From positions 35,154,001-35,218,000 of the forward strand of contig OX597815.1 in the NCBI GenBank assembly GCA_951406725.2: a stretch of 64,000 nucleotides of DNA, given 5' to 3'. The stretch comes from Octopus vulgaris. Its lineage: Eukaryota. The notes under the pieces were generated by a model, which saw nothing but the letters and a program-made list of their open reading frames with translations, did not search any database and was not told the origin of the DNA. Made by a program: the position numbers and the translations under genes. Below, in pieces: positions 1 through 62,335 of the stretch. Within the stretch, counting starts at the first letter, position 1; each line of letters begins with the position of its first letter.

Positions 1-2289
1 CCATCACATTTTTAAGGTGTTGAAAAAATTAAGCAAAATATTCACGGATAAAGCCTACCATCCATGTAGATAGATCACAGCAGGATTTTAAACGCAAAAC
101 GCAAAGAGCCAGAACAAACAACATCCTATCCGACATTCTTATAATCCTGCCAACCCACTGCTTTGGACTGGCAATTTTTATCGGCTCTGAAACGATTGAA
201 AACAAATTTGATCTCGATGAAATTTGAACTCACAGCATAGCGATTCAGAACAAATACAGTGAAGCATTTTGCCCGACGTTCTAACGTCTCTGTTACCAAC
301 AAAGCACCAGAGGAATGATAGTGCTACTCAAGCAACAAAACTCTATCGTACTAAAGTTAATTTGAACAGTTATATTATTCTGATATAAGAACCAAAACTA
401 GACTGAATTACGTTTCTTAATTAACAGAACTACACAACTGTGTTATCACAATAGACGCATTCGAATTTCATCGGCAACAAAATTACAACTGCCTAATGTT
501 AGGATCAGAGTTCTGCTTTTTATTCACTTTTGGAACCAATTTCTATCTAACAAGAGCATTTTTTTTAGTGTGTTTTGTGCGTATGTTGATTTCTTGATAT
601 TTTTTTTTATTTTGTAAAGGAACAAGGGCTATTTTGTTCGGGGAATATAGTTGATTGAATATATCCTAATACCATGCAGGTACTTAATTTATCGATTCGA
701 GAGAAATGAAAGGCAATATCGATCCCGGAAAGATGAAAGCAACGACAGAGCTTTCGATATGAATCAGAAAACTGAGAGCAAAAGGGAAAAAAAATTCTTC
801 AAAGTCGACTACCCAGCTTTGACGCCCATCTCTATTGTAAGTGTTAAAAGTAATTATATGAAAGAGTTCTTACAGGTTGAGTAGTTTGTTTAATGAACGG
901 GTACATTTGATGAATCGAATAGACAAACTTTACTAGGGGAACATGGATGCTTATCTTTCTATCTAATCTAATTGTCACAACTTTTTTTCTCTTTGTGTGT
1001 GTGTGCGTTTTTTTTTTTGTTTATTCTTGTTGTTTTATTGTTTGTATTTTTTTTTTTTTTTTTTTACACAGGACAAAAATGTTTCAGGTATTCTACCAAT
1101 AGATGTTTCTGAAACGGTTTCTCATATAACATCAGATCTAACGCTGCATAAAACAAACTATTCTTAGAAATTAGAAATGAAGTTACCATTAACTGATCTC
1201 GGGATTAAGAAAAATCTTTTACGAAGCAGGAGACCTTTTATATTAAAGAAATATTGCTGATTAAATTTCAGTTTCAGTGTACTACTTGTTCTACTTTTAT
1301 CGACGTCAAGGGAATGAAATGCAATGCCTTTCGTGAATTGAATTCAGAACCGACAAAGGCGAAATGAAGTACTTATAATACATTTTAGATTTCCCTTTTA
1401 CTAAAGATGGCAACTCGCCGCAGGTAGGTAAATATGACAATGTGTCAACAGTAATTCGAAATCCTTTTCTCCCAGCTATTAATACTAAACCAGTGAAAAC
1501 ACGAATCTGAGATTAAATTGCGTCTTAAATTAAGCTGTTATCGACATTATGAAATATTTTCCCGCTCCTAAATACAAATTAAATATTCAAACATATCTTG
1601 AAGCGTTTATTTCTACTTCATAGTAGAAATAAAACGCTATAGTTCAACGATAAATATAAAAAGGATTCAAGGAATTCTAAAAATATTTTATATTAAATAG
1701 AATATAACAACATTAAGACGTCATACTTGCAGATCTTATTTATATATTCCATTATTGTTTTTCTCCGTCATAAATGGCATCATATGATTACACAGATAAG
1801 GATTTCTCTTTTATTATTTAATATATTTCATCGCAAAAATCAGTAATTTGTAAAGTGTTCGTAGAATACTCTGCATCGCTAAAAGATTCCAATGACTCAC
1901 TTTCCCTGTTGACTTAGTTGCTTCGCTCGTCAAGAATCAAAATATTTTACACCAATATGAATTTGACAATCTAATCATTATTTTACGATATTCAAGTGCA
2001 AATGTTATTCGTTTAAAACATAAATAAGCATATCAAATCTCATTTCTCTTAAACAACATCTCCCAAATCAAAGTACTCCGCACTACACATGACAACATGT
2101 ATCATCTATAGTTTCTGTTGGAAACTTCATATTTTCTCCAGAATGAAATGAATCGTATCGAGATGGATTTTGAATTTTTAACACATAGGTCTCATTTAAT
2201 CAATAATATCCCTATTACCTTCTTACATTTTCTGATCATGAACATATTCCATACTTCAGCTAGCAGACAATATATATATATATATATAG

Positions 2290-2495
2290 TTAATCCAAAC
2301 ATGAAAACACAAAGAGAAAACACAACAATGCGAGGACGTGGAACAAATATAGTGTTATTGGACGCTCAGGAAAAGAAAGAAAGAAGGAGGATTTAACGCT
2401 TTGAGCGGAGCTCTTCATCAGAAACATAGGAAAAGGGAAGATCCAAGGAAGGGAAGACGGAGGGAAAAAATCGCCAACGGTACGCACGTGGTCAC
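2290..2495 (-). mobile_element. Penelope-like pLTR fragment with degenerate minimal type I hammerhead (2391-2425)
   Basis: Minus strand reads GTTT-CTGATGA-A-GAGC-TCC-GCTC-AAAGCGTT-AAAT. Core and stem II are intact, and the expected GAAAC has decayed to AAAGC. The layout is typical of Penelope-associated minimal hammerheads. Confidence 0.55.
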
Positions 2496-2514
2496 ATATA
2501 TATACATATATACA

Positions 2515-2563
<49 letters not shown>

Positions 2564-2603
2564 CGTGTATGTATGTATGTATGTATGTATGTATGTATGT
2601 ATG

Positions 2604-2634
<31 letters not shown>

Positions 2635-2789
2635 TTGTGTGTGTGTATCATTGGTTTTACCTCCTATCCGAGAATTTAGTTTCTTCTGTGCTGAACGCTT
2701 CCTTTATGGTGATGGCGTTGATAATGATGTGGACAAATTCTTTCATAGAAAAGTTGATGGCATTATATATATATATTATATATATACAA

Positions 2790-3020
2790 GGCGGCGAGCT
2801 GGCAGAAACGTTAGCACGCCGGGCGAAATGCGTAGCCGTATTTCGTCTGCCGTTACGTTCTGAGTTCAAATTCCGCCGAGGTCGACTTTGCTTGTCATCC
2901 TTTCTGGGTCGATAAATAAAGTACCAGTTTCGCACTGGGGTCTATGTAATCGACTTAATCCCTTTGTCTGTCCTTGTTTGTCCCCTCTATGTTTAGCCTC
3001 TTGTGGGTAGTAAAGAAATA
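2790..3020 (+). mobile_element. tRNA-derived SINE, family 2 (GGCGGCGAGCTGGCAGAA head)
   Basis: A-box-like head, B-box GAGTTCAAATTCC and 3' tail ...GTAGTAAAGAAATA. Homologous copies at 25430, 20935, 49750 and 57460. Confidence 0.85.
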
Positions 3021-3079
3021 TATATATATAAGAGAAAAATGGGATTAAAAATCCTGGCAGATATCAAGTAAGCACTCAG

Positions 3080-3149
<70 letters not shown>

Positions 3150-3632
3150 TATGTATATATAACAACTTTTCATTCAGTTCAGACGATTCTGCCATATTTG
3201 ACTTTTAAAAAGGCCATTTCTGCTGCGGGTTTTCCGAGGACAAACTTAAGACAACAGGTATTAAAATACGGACAGCCATTTCAAAACTCCCCACCCCACC
3301 CCAGTAGACCGATAAACGTCATTCTAGGTACTTGGCTTCTGCTTATAAAGTCATCTCGGTATCGTCTCTCTTATTGTAGCCGGTATTAATGAATAGCAGA
3401 GAGCTAGAAATGCATTTATCGGTCTATTAGAGGACACCCTGAGACGACTAATGATATTTTAACAACTGTTAACTAAACCGAGTATTTTCTCCACCGAAAA
3501 CTGCAGTGAAAATTGTCTTTGTACAGGCTAAAGATGTCACAAACCTATTTGAATTGATTTAAAAGTTTATCTATTCCACAGTATTGCTTCACGTGCATGC
3601 TATAAAATATATTTGTATGTCTGCATATGTAT

Positions 3633-3696
<64 letters not shown>

Positions 3697-3715
3697 GTGT
3701 GTCTGTGTCTGTGTG

Positions 3716-3750
<35 letters not shown>

Positions 3751-4789
3751 GAGGGGAGAGATACGTATGTATACCTCATTTCTTCTAATATAAAATACCT
3801 GTACATCATCTCCAAACCTTCTAATACATATATACATATATACACATACAAATATATGTGTGTGTATATATATATATATATACAGATAAGAAAAGAAATG
3901 GAGCAACAATTATCGTTAGAAGTTGATCATTAGTATTAAAAGGTCATAGGTTAATTGTAGTTCGAGAACATTTATAGCTGTTTCAGTTTGTAATGTCGAA
4001 GTAACTTGCATTTAGCTCGTTCCATTTAACAAACATCGTTAGAATGATTTAGAGTTTCTCGGTGGAATATAGATAGGAGGAAAAGGGAAATGAAAAGAAA
4101 AAGGAAAAAAGGAAAATGTTCGTTAAGTCTTTAGGCTTACATTTTTGTGCCCTTTTTGAATCCCATGCGTGTGTACGTTTCTTCAATTAGATGAAAGGAG
4201 CAATAAGTGGGGAATATGATTAGTTGAACAGCGGTGTTAGTCGAAGGAGTTATACCTGGTGGCAATTTGCGGTGTTGTTAATCGTAATATATAAGGCTGT
4301 TTGTGACCGCTAGATAAGTCCCTATGGTTACAAATAATGCCCTTGTTAAAAACTAAGGATACTTTAAAAAAAATTAGTGCGATATAATGTATAAATTTTG
4401 GTTACGTAAAAAGCATAATAATAAATATATGAAAAAAACATGTTATGTGCGGCGCGGGCTATTTACTCGTTAATATGATTAAAAACCAATACAGTCGGCT
4501 AAGATATGCTAAATCGCTCGTTTAATCATGTTTATATTAATGGCCGCCCTAGCAATTGGTATGTTAGTCAGCGATCTAACTTTAAAGTGAATATATTATA
4601 GAGAATTATATGTCCTGGTGTACATTGCAAATTTAAGATAGATAATTCAGTTAATCGGGGTAATTTAATTTAATTTAATTATGATGTGATGTTAAATTAT
4701 GCTCTGTGGTAAGGGAGTCGGTTAGGAGAGGTAACTAGATGTTATGCAGGTCAGCTAATAACCTGTAATTAGCGGTGTTTAGAGAATAA

Positions 4790-6360
4790 GAATTTATCGT
4801 TATGTAAACATATATTTTTCTTGTCTCGTTTATTAAGAAATTCTGATTTGGCCATTAAAATTAAGGATTTCTCATTTATGTATATATTACAGCGATTATT
4901 TTTAAGGTTATATGAAGATGTTTTGGCTAGGAATCACCATTCTTATCTATAATTAATGTTATTGTCTTTCAGTTCCCAGATGTTACTACTTAATCCGGTA
5001 GAGTTAGCCTTACTTCTATTTCTGAAACTTAAGCGATGGGAATTATATTCAAGTTTCATTTCATTTTTAGTATTTACTATATAAGTTTTCTTGTAATTAT
5101 TTGAGAATACACTACATTGGTAGATTACATTTTTAGCTTTACATTTATTCAAGAATTCACGAGTATTTTTATCTCTGAAGCCACATAGATTAGTAAGATT
5201 ATCTGTGTCTATATGGCGAGGAGTATTATCATTTATGAGGTGGTTGTCCGAATTTTTAGAGGGTGAGTTATTTGGGGGATTACTTATTATATCAATCGAT
5301 TGGTTATTGTGTTTTTTATGGTTATTCTTCCTAGTTTCATAGAAGGCGTCTAGCTTTTTATTGTTGATAGAGGCGATAATAGTAACTAGGTTGCTAGTTA
5401 GGTTATGGCCAACTCTAATTTTATTGCTAAATATTTCTGAGTATTTCGTATTCATATTGAAGTGCTTTTTATAAGTTTCATTATAGATTTAACTATATTG
5501 GTTTTCAGTTTTATCACGAAGGGGATTATTAACCAGATGTTATCTTTATTCCGCTTGTTATTTTTAATATTTTTGTTTTTGGTGTAAAAACTGCCTTCAG
5601 TATTATTGTAGCTCGTAAAGTTATGGTTATTATTATTATAATTCTTTCTATTGTTATTTTTATTACTATTGCTATCAGCTTTGGTAGGGTTGTTCCTATT
5701 TGATTTATTTATTTTATTTACCTTGATATTATAATTACTAACAGGGACTTTATTGGTTCTTTTAGGTGTATTATTTTAATTTTTATTCTTCTTAATATTT
5801 TTCTTGGTATTGTTATCATTCTCATTATTGGTATTTCTACCGTTATCATATCTAATGTTGTTATTAGTATTATTATTAATCTTATTATTCTTCCTACTAT
5901 TATTATTATTACTACTATTATTGTTATTGTTATTGTTATTGTTTTTGTGATTATTATTATAGAAATATTGTCTATTATTCCTATTATTATAATTATGAAT
6001 ATTTATGTTATTCGCGTTATTTTTATAAGGCTCCGAGCAAAAGTACTTAATTTTTTGCATATAACCTGCTTTTCCCAATGCAATGTTGTAGTCTTTCTAA
6101 TACTTATTGAAGATACCTTCGTTGAACGAGAGATACGAAATTCTTTTACTAATGCTCTGTACAAGTCCTCTTTTTATAAAGTTTGGGTGTTTGCTACATG
6201 TATTAATATACTTGAGGTTGACATTCGGTTGATGTACGGTTAATGTAATCCTGTGGTTAAATTACAATAGGCATCAAAATAATTAATAGAATTATGCTCT
6301 TTTTCTATCGTGATGGTTAATCCAAACCGTTTAAAGAACTTATGTAGGGATATACTCAAG
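4790..6360 (-). pseudogene. Penelope-like retroelement remnant: RT C-terminus, Asn-rich linker, GIY-YIG endonuclease
   Basis: ORF 4943-5455 contains CGFRDK..NKCKAKNVIYQCSV..KTYIVNT..YNSHRLSF..TGLSSNIWELK (GIY-YIG-like). Upstream broken frames resemble the Penelope RT thumb (..KAGY..KIKY). Several frameshifts. Confidence 0.8.
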
Positions 6361-9083: not shown

Positions 9084-9339
9084 TGTCAACTCAACTTTTC
9101 CACATTTCTTTCCTTATACAATTTTTTTTAAATTCCTTATACATGGTTTGTGCTTGATGAATATGCTTGAGATATTTCTCAACATATGAAACTATTAGTA
9201 GCACCTAAAGACATGTATTGTGTCCTTTAAGTAAATACTTTTCGCTCTCCAGATGGAGCACGTTTTTGTTGATCTTTCTATCATGCAACAGTGCATTATA
9301 TATATAGGGAGAAAGGGAGACAGACAGACTGATAGTAAA

Positions 9340-9886
9340 CGGTTTCCCTAATCTTTTTCTTTCCTTCCCCGTTTTCTATCTCTCCCTCTCCCTTTCTCTT
9401 TTCCTCTCTCTCTAGTTGCTCATACGTGACCATCGTCCATCTTTCTTTTTCTCATGTGATCATCTTTCTTTTCCTTCAGGACTGGACGTATTCTATCTCT
9501 CACTTCTATCTTTTCTCTTTTTAAAGAAAATATTTCTCCAACATTCGCTATTTTACCCTCGTTCTGGTTTAACGACCTTCCATGTTTGATTGCGTTCGGT
9601 TTCCTTCTATGTCTCCACTGTCATGCTTTTGTTCCCAGCTTTGACCCTCCATAAATCCAAAATTTTATTTTGGTACTTATGAGAGCAGCTGTCTTCAAAG
9701 ACTCATATTGTTGTTCAATGCCCGAAATGTGGAGTAGATCGACAGCCGACAACTGATGAAGGATCTTTCTTTATGTTACTTGTCCTGTTTTCCATTTGTT
9801 TCTCTCGTTATTTGCGTATTGAATTCATTTGTTTTCGTATTTCATATTGTTTACTGTCGGTGACGTCCTATACCCATATATGCATA

Positions 9887-9895: not shown

Positions 9896-9956
<61 letters not shown>

Positions 9957-11418: not shown

Positions 11419-11542
11419 ATAGTAGAAGACACCTGTCTAAGGTGCCATGCAGTGGGACTGAACCCAGAGCCGTGTGGTTGGGAAGCAAGCTTCTTACCAC
11501 ACAGCCCCATGCCTGCCAGGCCACGAGACTTCATACGATTAA

Positions 11543-11634
<92 letters not shown>

Positions 11635-12020
11635 CCTGCCAGGCCACGAGACTTCATACGATTAAAGATATATATATATATACATATCTTTAATCGTATG
11701 AAGTCTCGTGGCCTGGCAGGCATGGGGCTGTGTGGTAAGAAGCTTGCTTCCCAACCACACGGTTCTGGGTTCAGTCCCACTGCATGGCACCTTAGACAAG
11801 TGTCTTCTACTATAGCCCATCATATTTGTGTGTGTGTGTGCGTGCATGTATATGTATATGTTTGTGCGTCTGTGGTGTGTTTACGTCCCCGGCAAAAGAG
11901 ACCGATAGTATAAGTACCAGGCTTACAAAGAATAAGTCCTGAGGTCGATCTATTCGACTAAACGCGTTGTTCCAGCATGGCCCCATTCAAATGACTGAAA
12001 CAAGTAAAAGAATTAAAGAA
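11419..12020. mobile_element. SINE family 1 copy (+, ~11715-12020) with inverted duplicate of its head and flank (11419-11546)
   Basis: 128-bp arms 11419-11546 and 11686-11813 are reverse complements with 2 mismatches, flanking a (TA)n spacer. Confidence 0.85.
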
Positions 12021-13377: not shown

Positions 13378-14120
13378 GATCGAACGCCACGCATCCATTC
13401 CCAAATAAGTTTTATCTTAATAATTCCTATTCGCACTATACAACCTTTTTCTATTCTATCTCCCTCTCTTGTTCTTCCTTTCTGTTTTTCTCTTCTATCC
13501 TTTCTCTAATTTTTCTCCTCTCCTTTTCACCGTTTCCTCTCTCTCCCTCTCTCTTCTTCCTTGACTCTCTCGTTGCTAACACGTGACCAACGGCTATCTA
13601 TCTTTCTGTCTTCCACTTCCTTCCAAAAGACTAGACGTGCTTTTGCCTGTCCATTCTCAAAGCTCGTTTCTCCGGCGTTCACCACTTCACCTGCTTATGG
13701 CTAAACAGCTCTCACCGTTTTTTCTTTTTTTTTACTGTTTTGTTCTCACTGTCCTGTTTTTATCACCACTTTAACCCACTGCAAATCCCAATTTTTAAAA
13801 AAATTTGCTTTGCAGGAACGGTTTCAACGAAGTCGCGTCTTGTCCCAATGTTCCAAACGCGGAGTAGATAAAACAGGGCTCAACTGATGGAGGGAGTGTT
13901 CTTTATCTTGCCTGTTTCGTTTCTCTATTTGTTTCTTTCGTTGTTCGAAAAAAAGTTCGTTTTCCATGTTTTTGTTTTTTTATGTTCTCTTTTCTGATTC
14001 TGTTCACGTTTTTTGACATATATATATATGTAGGTATGTGATGTATGAATGCAAATATGCATATATATATTATATTATTATGTGATCGAACGCCACGCAT
14101 CCATTTCCAAGTTTTATCTC
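13378..14120 (+). mobile_element. Hammerhead-bearing repeat, copy B, with terminal direct repeat
   Basis: GATCGAACGCCACGCATCCATT(C/T)CCAA occurs at 13378 and again at 14084 (period 706 bp). Degenerate permuted hammerhead at 13833-13894. Confidence 0.75.
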
Positions 14121-27891: not shown

Positions 27892-28610
27892 CAATAATAA
27901 ATCTCTGAACGAGATGTAAACAGTAACTGCTCGACAACGTAAAGTATATTAGCCATCTCAATATGGCTAACCACAAAGGGTGGCTGTTACTGTAGCTTTT
28001 AGTCCCAGGAGATCATCGTCTCCAGCTGGCTTTAGGCACACCTTCTGTGCCCTTATGGTATTTGCAAAGGGAGGTCATCCCTCTCTCGTAAACCTAAGTG
28101 ATACGCACGGACTGTAGTTTTTAGGTATTTGCCTGTTGGGCACAGAAAGTGTGCCTAAAGCCAGCTGGAGATGATGATCTCCTGGGGCTAAAAGCTGCAG
28201 TAACAACCACCCTTAGTGGTTAGCCATATTGAGATGGCTAGTATACTTTACGTTGTCGAGCGGTTACTGTTAACATCTCGTTCAGAGATTTATTATTGCT
28301 TGCAGACAGTTTTTCGAAATCAGTGACGGAAGTTACTGGGAAAAACAATAAATAAGTATTTGCAAACAGGTCTCCCTTCATCGAAAACCGGTGATTGCCG
28401 TACGTTGACAACAGGCAAATACCTAGAAACTGCAGTCCGTGCGTATCACTTAGGTTTACGAGAGAGGGATGACCTCCCTTTGCAAATACCATAAGGGCAC
28501 AGAAAGTGTGCCTAAAGCCAACTGGAGACGATGATCTCCTGGGGCTAAAAGCTACAGTAACACCCACCCTTAGTGGTTAGCCATATTGAGATGGCTAGTA
28601 TACTTTACAT
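27892..28610. repeat. Inverted plus tandem array of a Helitron-internal segment
   Basis: 27892-28137 is the reverse complement of sequence in 28138-28297 and 28410-28608. The motif GTGGTTAGCCAT(A/C)TTGAGATGGCTA also occurs inside the Helitron at ~45203-45228. Confidence 0.75.
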
Positions 28611-28699
28611 TTATAACAGCCCTAGATTAATGTAATTTCAGTATGTCATTAGTGTACATCTAACAAGCTGATCTGTCGGCTTCTGTTATTCCAGATTGA

Positions 28700-38571: not shown

Positions 38572-39480
38572 ATAATATATTAATAAATAAAATAAAACAT
38601 ATGCATATATATAAACATATATGTACGTACCTACCTTTACATGTACATATACACGCATATATGAGTACAGGACACCAAAAGGACGTCGAACACAATGAGA
38701 AACGAAAACATAGACACAAACCAAAGGAACTGGACATTTATTTAAAAGCAGCAAAAAAAAAAAAAATAGAGTACAGGACAATTAACACAATGGAAAAAAC
38801 CCTTCTTCAGTCGCTAAAGGTTTCATCTACTCTACGTTTCGAAGGATAAAAGCGAGCGTATCTTCGACAAGAAAACTTTCCTTCCTGCGAAAAGCAAATC
38901 AATTAAAATTCTGAGATCTTTTCGCAGAGGGGTAAAAAATGGTTACAACAGGACAGTAACGACAGTACAAATTGTAAACAGTAAAAGACAGAACAAGATA
39001 AGAAGGGCTGTTGACGCCGAACGAAAAAAAGTATTGCAAATGCAGAATTTTTCATGGACGACGAGCGGAGCAAAAAGAATGTCGTCCATTACCTTGAGAG
39101 AGCCAGGCGAGAGAGACAGCAGTGGAAGTGACGTCGCAGGTGAACGACGGGAAGGCGGAAGTCACGTCGCGGATGAACGACGGGAAGGGGGGAGGAGGAG
39201 CAAGAGAAAGGGAGAGAAGAAGGGGAATGGCTGCGAGGAAACCATGAAGAATTGAGAGGGGGAGAGAGAGAGAGGAAGAGACAAGTTAAGTAGAGGAAAA
39301 GGAAAACAAAGAATGAAGGCTAAGAAAGGGATGGGACAGAAAGGTTAAGAGTGCCCGTGAGAGTTAATATCAAGAACAAAAACTTGATATAAAGAACAAT
39401 CTTACTTAAGGGGGTGCGTGCGTTTCATCATATAATATATTAATAAATAAAATAAAACATATGCATATATATACACATAT
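38571..39480 (-). mobile_element. Hammerhead-bearing repeat, copy E, with terminal direct repeat
   Basis: TATAATATATTAATAAATAAAATAAAACATATGCATATAT occurs at 38571 and 39431 (period 860 bp). Permuted hammerhead strands at 38800-38860. Confidence 0.75.
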
Positions 39481-51294: not shown

Positions 51295-51620
51295 TCTGTT
51301 TTTACTGTTTTGTTCTCACTGTCCTGTTCTTATTACCACTTTCACTCTCCGCAAAAAATCCCTAATTTTACTTAATTTGCTTTGCGGGAAGGAATGTTTC
51401 AAAGAAGTCGCGTATTGTCCTTGCCTTCGAAAAAACGCGGAGTAGATGAAACAGGGACAACTGAAGAAGTGGAATATTCTTTATGTTGTATGTCTCGTTT
51501 CTCTGTTTGTTTGGTTATTTTTTTACGTTGTCCGGAAAAATAGTTCGTTTCTATGTTTTTTTATGTCCTGTACCCATATATGCATGTATATATACATAAA
51601 TATATAGGTATTTACATATA
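51292..51620 (+). mobile_element. Hammerhead-bearing repeat, copy D (5'-truncated)
   Basis: Aligns to 13730-14050. Permuted hammerhead strands at 51408-51470. Confidence 0.75.
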
Positions 51621-58185: not shown

Positions 58186-58188
<3 letters not shown>

Positions 58189-59429
58189 CACAATTGGACT
58201 GGCCAAAACAACCACAATTGGACTGGCCAAATATCTCGAAATATAAAACAACCACAATTGGACTGGCCAAATATCTCGAAATATCGAATGACTGGATGCT
58301 AAAGCTCGTGGAAAATCACGAGAGACGAAAGAAGCTTCATTCTATCATCAAGGAAAGCAAAAAATTTGCTATTGATCTCGTGCAGGATACCCAAACTGAA
58401 CAACCCGAGGGAAGTACGGCAACTATTGTTGCAAAGAAGGTGAAAATGATGGCAATGAAAAAAGCGCACGAGCAATTGGCTGATAGGTGGGAGGAGAAAC
58501 CTCTGCACGGCAAATATGTGACCCGCAGCAAACAAGCTGATGTTGACCAGAAGCAAACCCATCAGTGGCTGCGGAGCTCAGGGCTAAAAGCAGAGAGCGA
58601 AGGTTTCATCCTGGCTGCTCAAGACCAAAGCCTATTAACCCGGAACTACCAGGCCAATGTGATGAAAAATGGAGCAGACCCAAAATGCCGATTCTGCAAC
58701 GACATGATTGAAACAGTGGACCACCTAATCTCTGGATGTAAAGTTTTAGCACCAGTGGAGTATAAATTAAGACATGACAGAGTTGGCCAATATCTCCACT
58801 GGCTAATAAGTCGGCATTACAATATCAAAACTGCCGACAAGTGGTATAATCACCACCCTGAGGCTGTAACTGAAGGAGAAAATGTAACCATTCTGTGGGA
58901 CTTTCCAGTACATACAGACCGAACCCTCAAGGCCAATAAACCAGATATTGTTGTGAAAGACCAAAACAATAAAGTTTGCTTATTGATCGACATGAGCATC
59001 CCCTGTGATCATAATATCTCAGCGAAAGAGTTTGACCAGCTCAGAAAATATAAAGACCTACTCATTGAAATTGAGAAAATGTGGCATCTCAAGGCGGTTA
59101 CAATACCAGTGATCGTAGGAGCACTAGGAATGATCAAGAAGGGAACCGAAAATTATATGAGAATGATCCCTGGCTTACCATCCCTGCAAGAAGTGCAAAA
59201 GATTGTCTTAACTGGTACATCACACGTATTGAGAAGAGCATTGTCGATGTGAGAACTGTTGCTGCTCATGTATTTTAATTTAACTTTAAAAAAAAAAAAA
59301 AAAAAAAATGAACGAACTACTGAGTTTGGTTTAATGGCCTACCAATATACACTATGAGTTTCTTTGCCCTAGGAGTCGGGAAGACACTCGGCAAGAAATG
59401 GAAGAAAATTTGAAAGAAGAAAAAAAAAA

Positions 59430-61774: not shown

Positions 61775-62335
61775 TGTGGGTACAGGACGTCAAGTAACGT
61801 GTACAACAAGAAATACGAAGCACAAGTACATGAACTATTCTTTCGAACAACAAAAGACACAAATGGAAAACAAAACAAACAACATAAAGAACGACCCTCC
61901 ATCAGTTGTTGACTGTTTTTTCCAGTCTCGTATTTCGAGCATTTAACAACAATATACGCTTTCGTTAAAACCGTTGCTCCCGCAAAGCAAATTAAATAAA
62001 ACTTGGGATTTTGCATGCGGAGAGTCAAAATTGGTAACACAAACAAAACAGTGAAAACAAACAGGGAGGGCTGCTAAGCCTAAACGAGGTTATAGTGGCG
62101 AACGCGTAAATCAAGCTGGACAGGAAACAAACAATAACACGTCTTCCTTGTTCTAGCTAGAACGGAGAGAAAGAAAGAAAGATGGCCGATGGTCACGTCC
62201 GAGCCACCTGAGCAAGGAAGGAGGAGTGAGAAAGAGAGAGTTACAGAGTAATAGAATAGAATAGTGGGAGAAGAGGAGGTAAAAGAATAAGAGAGAAAAA
62301 GAGAGAAAGCCGAAAAAGTAAAAGGATCATATAGA
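61775..62335 (-). mobile_element. Hammerhead-bearing repeat, copy F
   Basis: Colinear with copies A and B on the minus strand. Permuted hammerhead strands at 61895-61958. Confidence 0.75.

Follow-up and report, generated by a model that had tools for sequence, protein, structure and literature searches.

The window, meaning the whole 64,000-nt stretch of AT- and microsatellite-rich animal DNA analyzed here, comes from a 2.8-Gb genome (G000) and carries, at 9.7 kb, a 5′-truncated copy of a non-coding repeat that bears a putative hammerhead ribozyme (Table 1). This copy is ~90% identical to its best genomic relatives and is followed by a (TA)n tract that runs up to about position 9955. The short inverted piece at its 5′ end matches the 5′ region of the copies in loci L002, L006, L011, L018, and L019; inverted 5′ pieces are seen likewise in Penelope-like insertions.

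Hammerhead types I, II, and III represent the circular orders CGS, GSC, and SCG of three strand blocks. At 9.7 kb, the blocks were found in the order S-G-C, which is not circular, as the first-pass annotation had proposed for positions 9701-9763: CUGAUGA, GAAA, the AUA triplet, and stem I are all in place, the first two intact, and H17 falls at the position after which cleavage had been predicted. That interval holds the core, but the RNA reaches ~60 nt further 5′, so that with the leader the ribozyme parts span 9643-9765. Stems II and III, P6, and P7 each contain one mismatch in this copy, a decayed ribozyme that is probably weak or dead.

Table 1. Positions of the repeat copies and of the predicted ribozyme parts in the window.
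Feature	Position	Strand	Remarks
Short inverted piece of the ~0.9-kb repeat	9306..9342	-	At the 5′ end of the 9343..9885 copy; from reverse-strand matches
5′-truncated copy of the non-coding ~0.9-kb repeat, subfamily A	9343..9885	+	BLAST extent versus 29 other copies
P7 5′ strand	9643..9648	+	Partner is the tail, 9760-9765, right after A9; 5/6 pairs in this copy
P6 hairpin	9649..9682	+	9649-9654 with 9677-9682; adjoins P7 and stem II with 0 linker; 1 mismatch in this copy
Stem II 5′ strand (G10.1 strand), from the leader	9683..9687	+	Partner 9719-9723; 4/5 pairs in this copy
P4 5′ strand	9688..9693	+	Partner 9741-9746; equals the stem I-II 'interaction' helix of type SGC (PMC10085705)
GAA side of the predicted AGUA/GAA bulged-G internal loop	9696..9700	+	Faces 9732-9737; decayed to AAA in this copy
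Block S	9702..9713	+	Stem III 5′ strand 9702-9706; H17 = A9707, followed by the predicted cut; stem I 5′ strand 9708-9713
Block G	9719..9731	+	Stem II 3′ strand 9719-9723; GAAA 9724-9727; stem III 3′ strand to 9731
Half of block C	9747..9765	+	Stem I 3′ strand 9747-9752; CUGAUGA 9753-9759; P7 3′ strand 9760-9765
3′ fragment of a copy, starting at GAAA	13290..13363	-	Inverted relative to the copy at 13.5-14.0 kb
Decayed ribozyme copy (13.9 kb)	13774..13896	+	GAAA and A9 lost (A9 to G)
Copy of subfamily C (youngest)	38798..38933	-	U16.1 deleted
Copy of subfamily B	51343..51472	+	GAAA followed by 3 extra A; cut predicted to follow 51414
Copy of subfamily D	61893..62026	-	A9 to G

The repeat family and other elements in the window

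Six copies of the ribozyme repeat were found in the window instead of the four originally counted, the additions lying at 13.9 kb (+) and 13.3 kb (-, a 3′ fragment). The 9.7-kb copy alone has a complete catalytic core. The GUC triplet ascribed to the 38.8-kb copy is not present there, owing to the deletion of U16.1; GUC is the majority state of subfamily C, to which that copy belongs. At 51.4 kb, the 9-bp helix read as stem I overlaps a separate covarying helix, P4, although the covariation of stem I holds family-wide.

Exact matches to a GAAA-to-CUGANGA pattern describing the window's lineage numbered 1,916 + 1,914 = 3,830 in G000, compared with 0 in the reversed control, in line with the dispersed family that had been suggested. 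Since only two of the six window copies fit this pattern, the true copy number should be higher. A descriptor covering all six block orders, run on 644 kb of loci, exposed a second lineage and gave 79 SGC matches versus 0 in reversed sequence, figures that do not amount to an enrichment test given that the loci had been chosen for the motif. The second-lineage motif has 3,602 + 3,737 = 7,339 exact matches in G000 (control 0), and the two lineages together exceed 11,000 copies in the genome. In Rfam, positions 9620-9800 did not match any hammerhead model up to E = 10, nor did eight loci at the gathering score, and on the whole window only simple-repeat look-alikes were present among the 150 of 354 matches listed; models of types I to III miss the motif, as had been anticipated.

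Subfamilies A to D were defined from four DNA searches with window copies, 40 matches being scored among 2,256-3,868 candidates per search, and those of the second lineage were named Q1, R, S, and T. The core was kept in 28 of the best 30 matches of subfamily C, with stems I to III fully paired in 23, and in 20 of the best 30 of subfamily A, with full pairing in 4, both sets being biased to close relatives. By these sequences, subfamily C is young. Sequencing runs X15-X20, labelled with several organisms, contain subfamily C words, and four of them cover the ribozyme at ≥90% identity, which suggests that the family is common to related species. Contigs of four possible RNA runs and of four further runs span the motif and display neither ends nor strand nor joints, so they speak neither for nor against cleavage.

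Several other elements were observed in the window. A different repeat at 2380-2425 (-) has a type I minimal-hammerhead-like core (CUGAUGA, extra A, and a GAGC/GCUC stem II); L167 has an intact version of its GAAA and the window copy a mutated one. The flanks of L035, L064, L065, and L129 also carry type I (CGS) hammerhead-like motifs, which belong to unrelated repeats. A broken Penelope-like remnant at 4802-6231 (-) yielded RT-thumb-like and GIY-YIG-like pieces by tblastn and no Pfam match. At 58188-59252 (+), a weak zf-RVT match was obtained for the 354-aa C-terminal part of a non-LTR retrotransposon, which likely belongs to the restriction-enzyme-like type. Inverted repeat copies build large near-palindromic stretches at 11419-11813 and 27892-28611.

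Catalytic core, stem II, and predicted fold

The CUGANGA, GAAA, and NUH core was found in 12/12 subfamily majorities, with N7 varying and the rest of the core fixed. Compensatory changes occur in stems I, II (with the leader), and III and in P4, P6, and P7. Stems I and III, for which covariation had been claimed, paired in 95.3% of cells over 22 copies, compared with 83.3% after shuffling (0/500) and 40-50% when slid, and two-sided changes affected 4/5 pairs in each stem. In 22 copies, P6 was 95.5% paired, with two-sided changes at three of the four counted pairs, and P4, 4-9 bp long in the 12 majorities, was 87% paired in 18 copies with one two-sided pair; P4 was not counted on alignment A2, nor P6 and P7 on A1, their columns having been misplaced by MAFFT. 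A type I dimer reading was tried and rejected, no stem-forming GAAA being found after CUGANGA in family copies.

Stem II had been drawn from the tail, that is, the bases after CUGANGA (YYC/A-GGG). In subfamily Q1, the bases following CUGAGGA cannot pair with the strand before GAAA, and a leader located upstream of block S pairs with it fully. When the leader strand was chosen as the best match within a 35-nt stretch, it formed 5/5 Watson-Crick pairs with the strand before GAAA in 12/12 subfamily majorities (clusters of 3-34 copies), as against 1.96 pairs when partners were swapped between subfamilies and 1-2 for the tail. The pairing sequences are GAGCA/UGCUC in A and D, GAAGG/CCUUC in B, C, and three more subfamilies, and, within the second lineage, GGCUGG/CCAGCC (Q1), GGCCGG/CCGGCC (S), and GCCCA/UGGGC (T). 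The leader strand is upstream of H17 by 21 nt in 5/5 second-lineage groups and by 24-29 nt in the remaining seven. Among alignment copies chosen near their subfamily majorities, the leader stem II was 97.3% paired in 22 copies of the window's lineage and 94.4% paired in 18 of the second, with three two-sided pairs each, and G10.1-C11.1 was G-C in 22/22 and 14/18 copies, respectively. Its energy ranged from -4.6 to -11.6 kcal/mol across majorities (-4.6 to -6.5 in the window's lineage). As the subfamilies are related, the two-sided changes at stem II represent perhaps five to eight events rather than independent samples. Covariation, energies, and the second lineage together indicate that the 5′ strand of stem II is probably the upstream leader and that the tail-based stem II is probably wrong.

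The competing wiring is an ordinary type-SGC hammerhead, with stem II formed by the tail (extra A, then GGG) and the leader acting as an off state or switch. In its favor, the tail is 95.5% paired with the 3′ strand of stem II (IIb) in the 22 copies of the window's lineage when G-U is counted, one pair being two-sided; a G-rich match to IIb is present in both the leader and the tail of A-H and R; and Penelope minimal hammerheads typically leave one base unpaired between A9 and G10.1 (PMC4209133). However, half of these pairs are G-U, the helix is worth only -1.5 to +1.8 kcal/mol, and the tail already has a 4-7-bp partner abutting P6. At 9.7 kb it offers just two Watson-Crick pairs, and over 18 second-lineage copies its pairing drops to 27.8%. 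Joining A9 to G10.1 through at most one or two inserted bases calls for G-U pairs in the window's lineage and fails in the second; in Q1, R, S, and T and in two octopus Naiad elements, the tail is unable to form stem II with 0-2 inserted bases. We therefore consider a tail-derived stem II unlikely, surviving in the window's lineage only as a weak alternative. The extra A likened to that of Penelope minimal hammerheads is, by the same token, probably a misreading, since the tail pairs elsewhere. With a leader that supplies stem II and a tail that pairs elsewhere, the wiring would be more unusual than the one first proposed.

With stem II completed by the leader, the partner of the tail is the strand directly 5′ of P6, and the 3′ strand of P6 runs into G10.1. 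Both joints lack a linker in subfamilies A, B, C, D, Q1, and T, so A9, P7, P6, and stem II are predicted to meet in a four-way junction between A9 and G10.1; in R and S, a 2×2 mismatch at the junction makes the abutment imperfect. The automatic choice of P6/P7 failed in 3/12 majorities, which were read by eye and by duplex folding, and unconstrained folds recovered P7, P6, P4, and stem III all together in 4/12 majorities and parts of the scaffold in the others. In the L220 group of the second lineage, P7 reaches ~14 bp with a conserved CAUUCG/CGAAUG, suggesting a longer rod that closes the ribozyme.

The joint between P4 and stem III differs between lineages. In the second lineage, three variable bases (eight triplets) are followed by GAU in 66/70 copies, with GGA on the opposite strand in 38/39 scored copies, an arrangement that by sequence fits the kink-turn consensus (3-nt bulge, tandem G-A/A-G pairs). 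In the window's lineage, the kink-turn pattern is absent and AGUA faces GAA between stem III and P4, presumably forming a bulged-G motif; subfamily D departs from this. The segment GAGUAGAU, initially described as a plain linker between the GAAA and CUGANGA strands, is better read as one side of this predicted AGUA/GAA internal loop. Pairing of GAGUAGAU with the P6 loop was also considered and discarded.

The predicted fold would thus run P7a-P6-IIa-P4a-IIIa-NUH-Ia-IIb-GAAA-IIIb-P4b-Ib-CUGANGA-P7b. The three core stems cross one another in a knotted form, and the fold may be viewed as a type-SGC hammerhead whose two ends have been connected into a circle, with a new opening placed at A9/G10.1. 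Through the putative kink-turn (second lineage and octopus Naiad) or bulged-G loop (window's lineage), P4 would be turned back to lie alongside stems III and II.

Truncation at the predicted cut and the host element

If the RNA were cut, reverse transcription would end at the cut, and copies would be expected to start there. Copies were selected solely on the part of the motif that begins at GAAA and were set against leader-intact references. For the window's lineage, 19/69 have their 5′ end within ~15 nt past the predicted bond, compared with 2/50 within the 16 nt preceding it (Fisher p = 5e-4). For the second lineage, 23/70 start just after the bond, three of them exactly at it, compared with 5/47 before (p = 0.004). 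A control set of 90 second-lineage copies was chosen by the far 3′ end, with one duplicate and three unalignable copies dropped; there, 14/61 at-risk copies end 0-15 nt after the bond, compared with 39/855 over 15 other 16-nt windows lying on both sides of it (p = 5e-7), ~7 control copies being shared with the first second-lineage sample. All of these samples are the first listed places on contig C1. Most 5′ ends fall 3-13 nt after the predicted cut and not exactly there, which is compatible with trimming at integration and leaves some room for a stall at stem II. The majority of copies extend across the site, so their templates would often be uncut or re-joined. The pile-up is an indirect sign of cleavage, and intact copies likely cut themselves after the NUH triplet.

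These ends also bear on a reading in which the motif is a non-catalytic relic or protein-binding element, such as a kink-turn protein site or an RT signal, and the pile-up reflects polymerase stalling. The displacement of most ends by several nucleotides and the frequent read-through would suit it. Yet the P6, P4, and P7 helices, although stronger, show no excess of truncation, whose frequency declines just 5′ of the predicted bond, and in two lineages and four Naiads all catalytic bases are invariant, in contrast to N7 and the helices; we regard this as the least probable of the explanations weighed. Only slightly better placed, and still very improbable, is a domain-swapped dimer in which the same helices form between two RNAs or tandem units, the P4-III rod stays straight, and the monomer is inactive. 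Tandem copies do exist, the P4-stem III links are short for a monomer fold, and animal type I hammerheads are described as often dimeric (PMC4209133, PMC7229834). Against this, genomic copies are mostly single, a conserved putative kink-turn suits a bent monomer, and type-SGC monomers that pose the same geometric puzzle cleave in cis (PMC10085705). Taken together, we find it quite probable that the 9.7-kb locus is a decayed copy of an S-G-C hammerhead in which the leader completes stem II and a four-helix junction interrupts the catalytic strand between A9 and G10.1, and that intact copies likely cut after the NUH triplet.

The repeat unit itself is non-coding, ~830-960 bp long, with a pyrimidine-rich 5′ part and a fixed 3′ end at (TA)n, 150-260 nt from the ribozyme. 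5′ truncation, partial tandems, inverted 5′ pieces, and (TA)n targets give it, as judged from its copies, a Penelope-like anatomy. Two tandem units in L236 are 98.2% alike, and insertions of more than one unit were seen, compatible with a circular RNA intermediate. A CACGTGACC-like box ~250-350 nt upstream of the ribozyme (window 9425-9440) is common to both lineages and is a candidate internal promoter.

An ORF with an N-terminal GIY-YIG and a C-terminal RT was absent from the repeat unit, and the neighboring Penelope-like ORFs are nested insertions of other families. The full Neptune-type ORF (RVT_1 + GIY-YIG) beside the copy in L151 was rejected as a parent, 19 other copies of this ORF being without a repeat so arranged, as were the ORFs near L062 and L089, which are old nested insertions at TA tracts; L118 has just a GIY-YIG-like remnant ~1.3 kb upstream. 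L172, L173, and L174 (contigs C23, C1, and C2 of G000) are young Neptune-type elements with ORFs of ~1,170 aa (RT and C-terminal GIY-YIG), one of these families having a period of ~4.27 kb. They have no sense-strand CUGANGA, so any ribozyme that they use would be a different one. Neptune could be the source of the enzyme that mobilized the young subfamilies.

In the mechanism that we propose, the ribozyme could fold only once its last strand is transcribed and would cut tandem or read-through transcripts into unit RNAs. P7, stem II, P4, and stem III all span the cut, so both ends would stay clamped for ligation, and a host ligase would probably re-join them, in parallel with other animal retrozymes. 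A Penelope-like reverse transcriptase would then prime at (TA)n, copy the linear or circular RNA, and either stop at the cut end or run past the joined end.

Relation to Naiads and to known hammerheads

Naiads, Penelope-like elements that target (TA)n, are reported to be without canonical hammerheads, although Craig et al. (2021) flag an 'HHR_half_core' in them, with GAAA 35-50 nt away (PMC8557442). We parsed by eye 13 published consensus 3′ ends, with names assigned from file order, and found the same split wiring in four: Naiad_Obim, Ovul, Amil, and Bfor. The stem II sequences differ among the four, and the leader completes each: GACACC/GGUGUC with a putative kink-turn in the octopus Naiads Obim and Ovul, GGCUCC/GGAGCC with an 8-bp P7 and a perfect junction in the coral Naiad Amil, and GGCCCA/UGGGCC with a short stem I in the ctenophore Naiad Bfor. 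The other nine of these 3′ ends, three of them marked incomplete, did not parse by eye. As a separate observation, the 3′ ends of Naiad_CGi and Naiad-1_Chem are G+C-rich and apparently structured, do not fit the split hammerhead, and possibly contain other ribozymes.

In G000, 132 + 154 = 286 places match the octopus Naiad motif exactly (control 0), a further hint that the genome is that of an octopus. Within 1.5 kb of the 12 Naiad-motif loci, the sequence contained no Naiad ORF, and blastn of three Naiad loci against 13 repeat loci gave no similarity outside simple repeats and the ribozyme plan. The repeat and the Naiads share (TA)n targets, 5′ truncation, partial tandems, inverted 5′ pieces, and, in the four 3′ ends above, the ribozyme wiring, whereas the window's element has no ORF. 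A Naiad origin of the ribozyme is most likely, even though cephalopod Naiads are described as long inactive (PMC8557442), which stands against it given the youth of subfamily C.

The S-G-C order has been published as type SGC, which cleaves in vitro (Eckert et al. 2023, PMC10085705). Natural non-circular hammerheads had indeed been reported, as the first-pass annotation noted, though Eckert et al. place them only in metatranscriptomes, with none from the genome of a known organism save one weak GCS candidate. HRIMA-1 and its variants share with the octopus repeat the S-G-C order, a 3-5-nt link between stems I and II, the full core, and an extra helix joining the other sides of these stems; P4, which comes after the leader strand and pairs beside stem I, occupies that site. 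Eckert et al. assume that block C (CUGANGA and its flanking strands) is uninterruptible. It is continuous from the stem I strand to the stem II strand in type SGC and broken here, the stem II strand and its P4 strand lying 5′ of block S and P6 and P7 filling the A9/G10.1 step. The 5′ products of SGC-1 to SGC-3 measure 15-18 nt only, whereas the octopus repeat has four helices across the predicted cut.

Penelope minimal hammerheads (PMC4209133) also conserve G10.1-C11.1 and sit in terminal repeats of Penelope-like elements. They follow the type I order, carry one additional base behind A9, have a stem III that is minimal or absent, and depend on dimers, unlike the octopus form, with its 5-bp stem III and an A9 that leads into a separate helix. 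Animal non-LTR retrozymes are non-coding, hammerhead-bearing tandem units thought to be moved by Penelope-like elements via circular RNA (PMC7229834; 10.64898/2026.07.22.740005). Theirs are type I hammerheads in ~300-bp units; the octopus repeat instead carries the knotted, non-circular S-G-C form in units of ~830-960 bp that are mostly dispersed and truncated. In the passages on the PMC3088659 core variants and on the PMC11300833 pseudoknot hammerhead, no break between A9 and G10.1 was seen, and the open-access article texts searched contained no split-core or animal non-circular hammerhead.

On balance, we lean toward a natural hammerhead wiring beyond the six-permutation scheme, in which a four-way junction opens the catalytic strand at A9/G10.1 and a kink-turn or bulged-G loop closes the fold. 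Such a wiring would be conserved from ctenophore and coral Naiads to the octopus, would be the missing ribozyme of Naiads, and would clamp the RNA for re-joining into a circle. If this is true, the stated rule that CUGANGA leads straight into stem II would be broken, and the helix slot at A9/G10.1 would offer ribozyme engineering a natural new place to attach sensors. Non-circular hammerheads would move from anonymous metatranscriptomes into animal genomes, where they would occupy tens of thousands of sites, and the question of why Naiads seem to be without hammerheads would become directly testable. Since standard descriptors and Rfam miss this form, more examples are probably hidden in other animal genomes.
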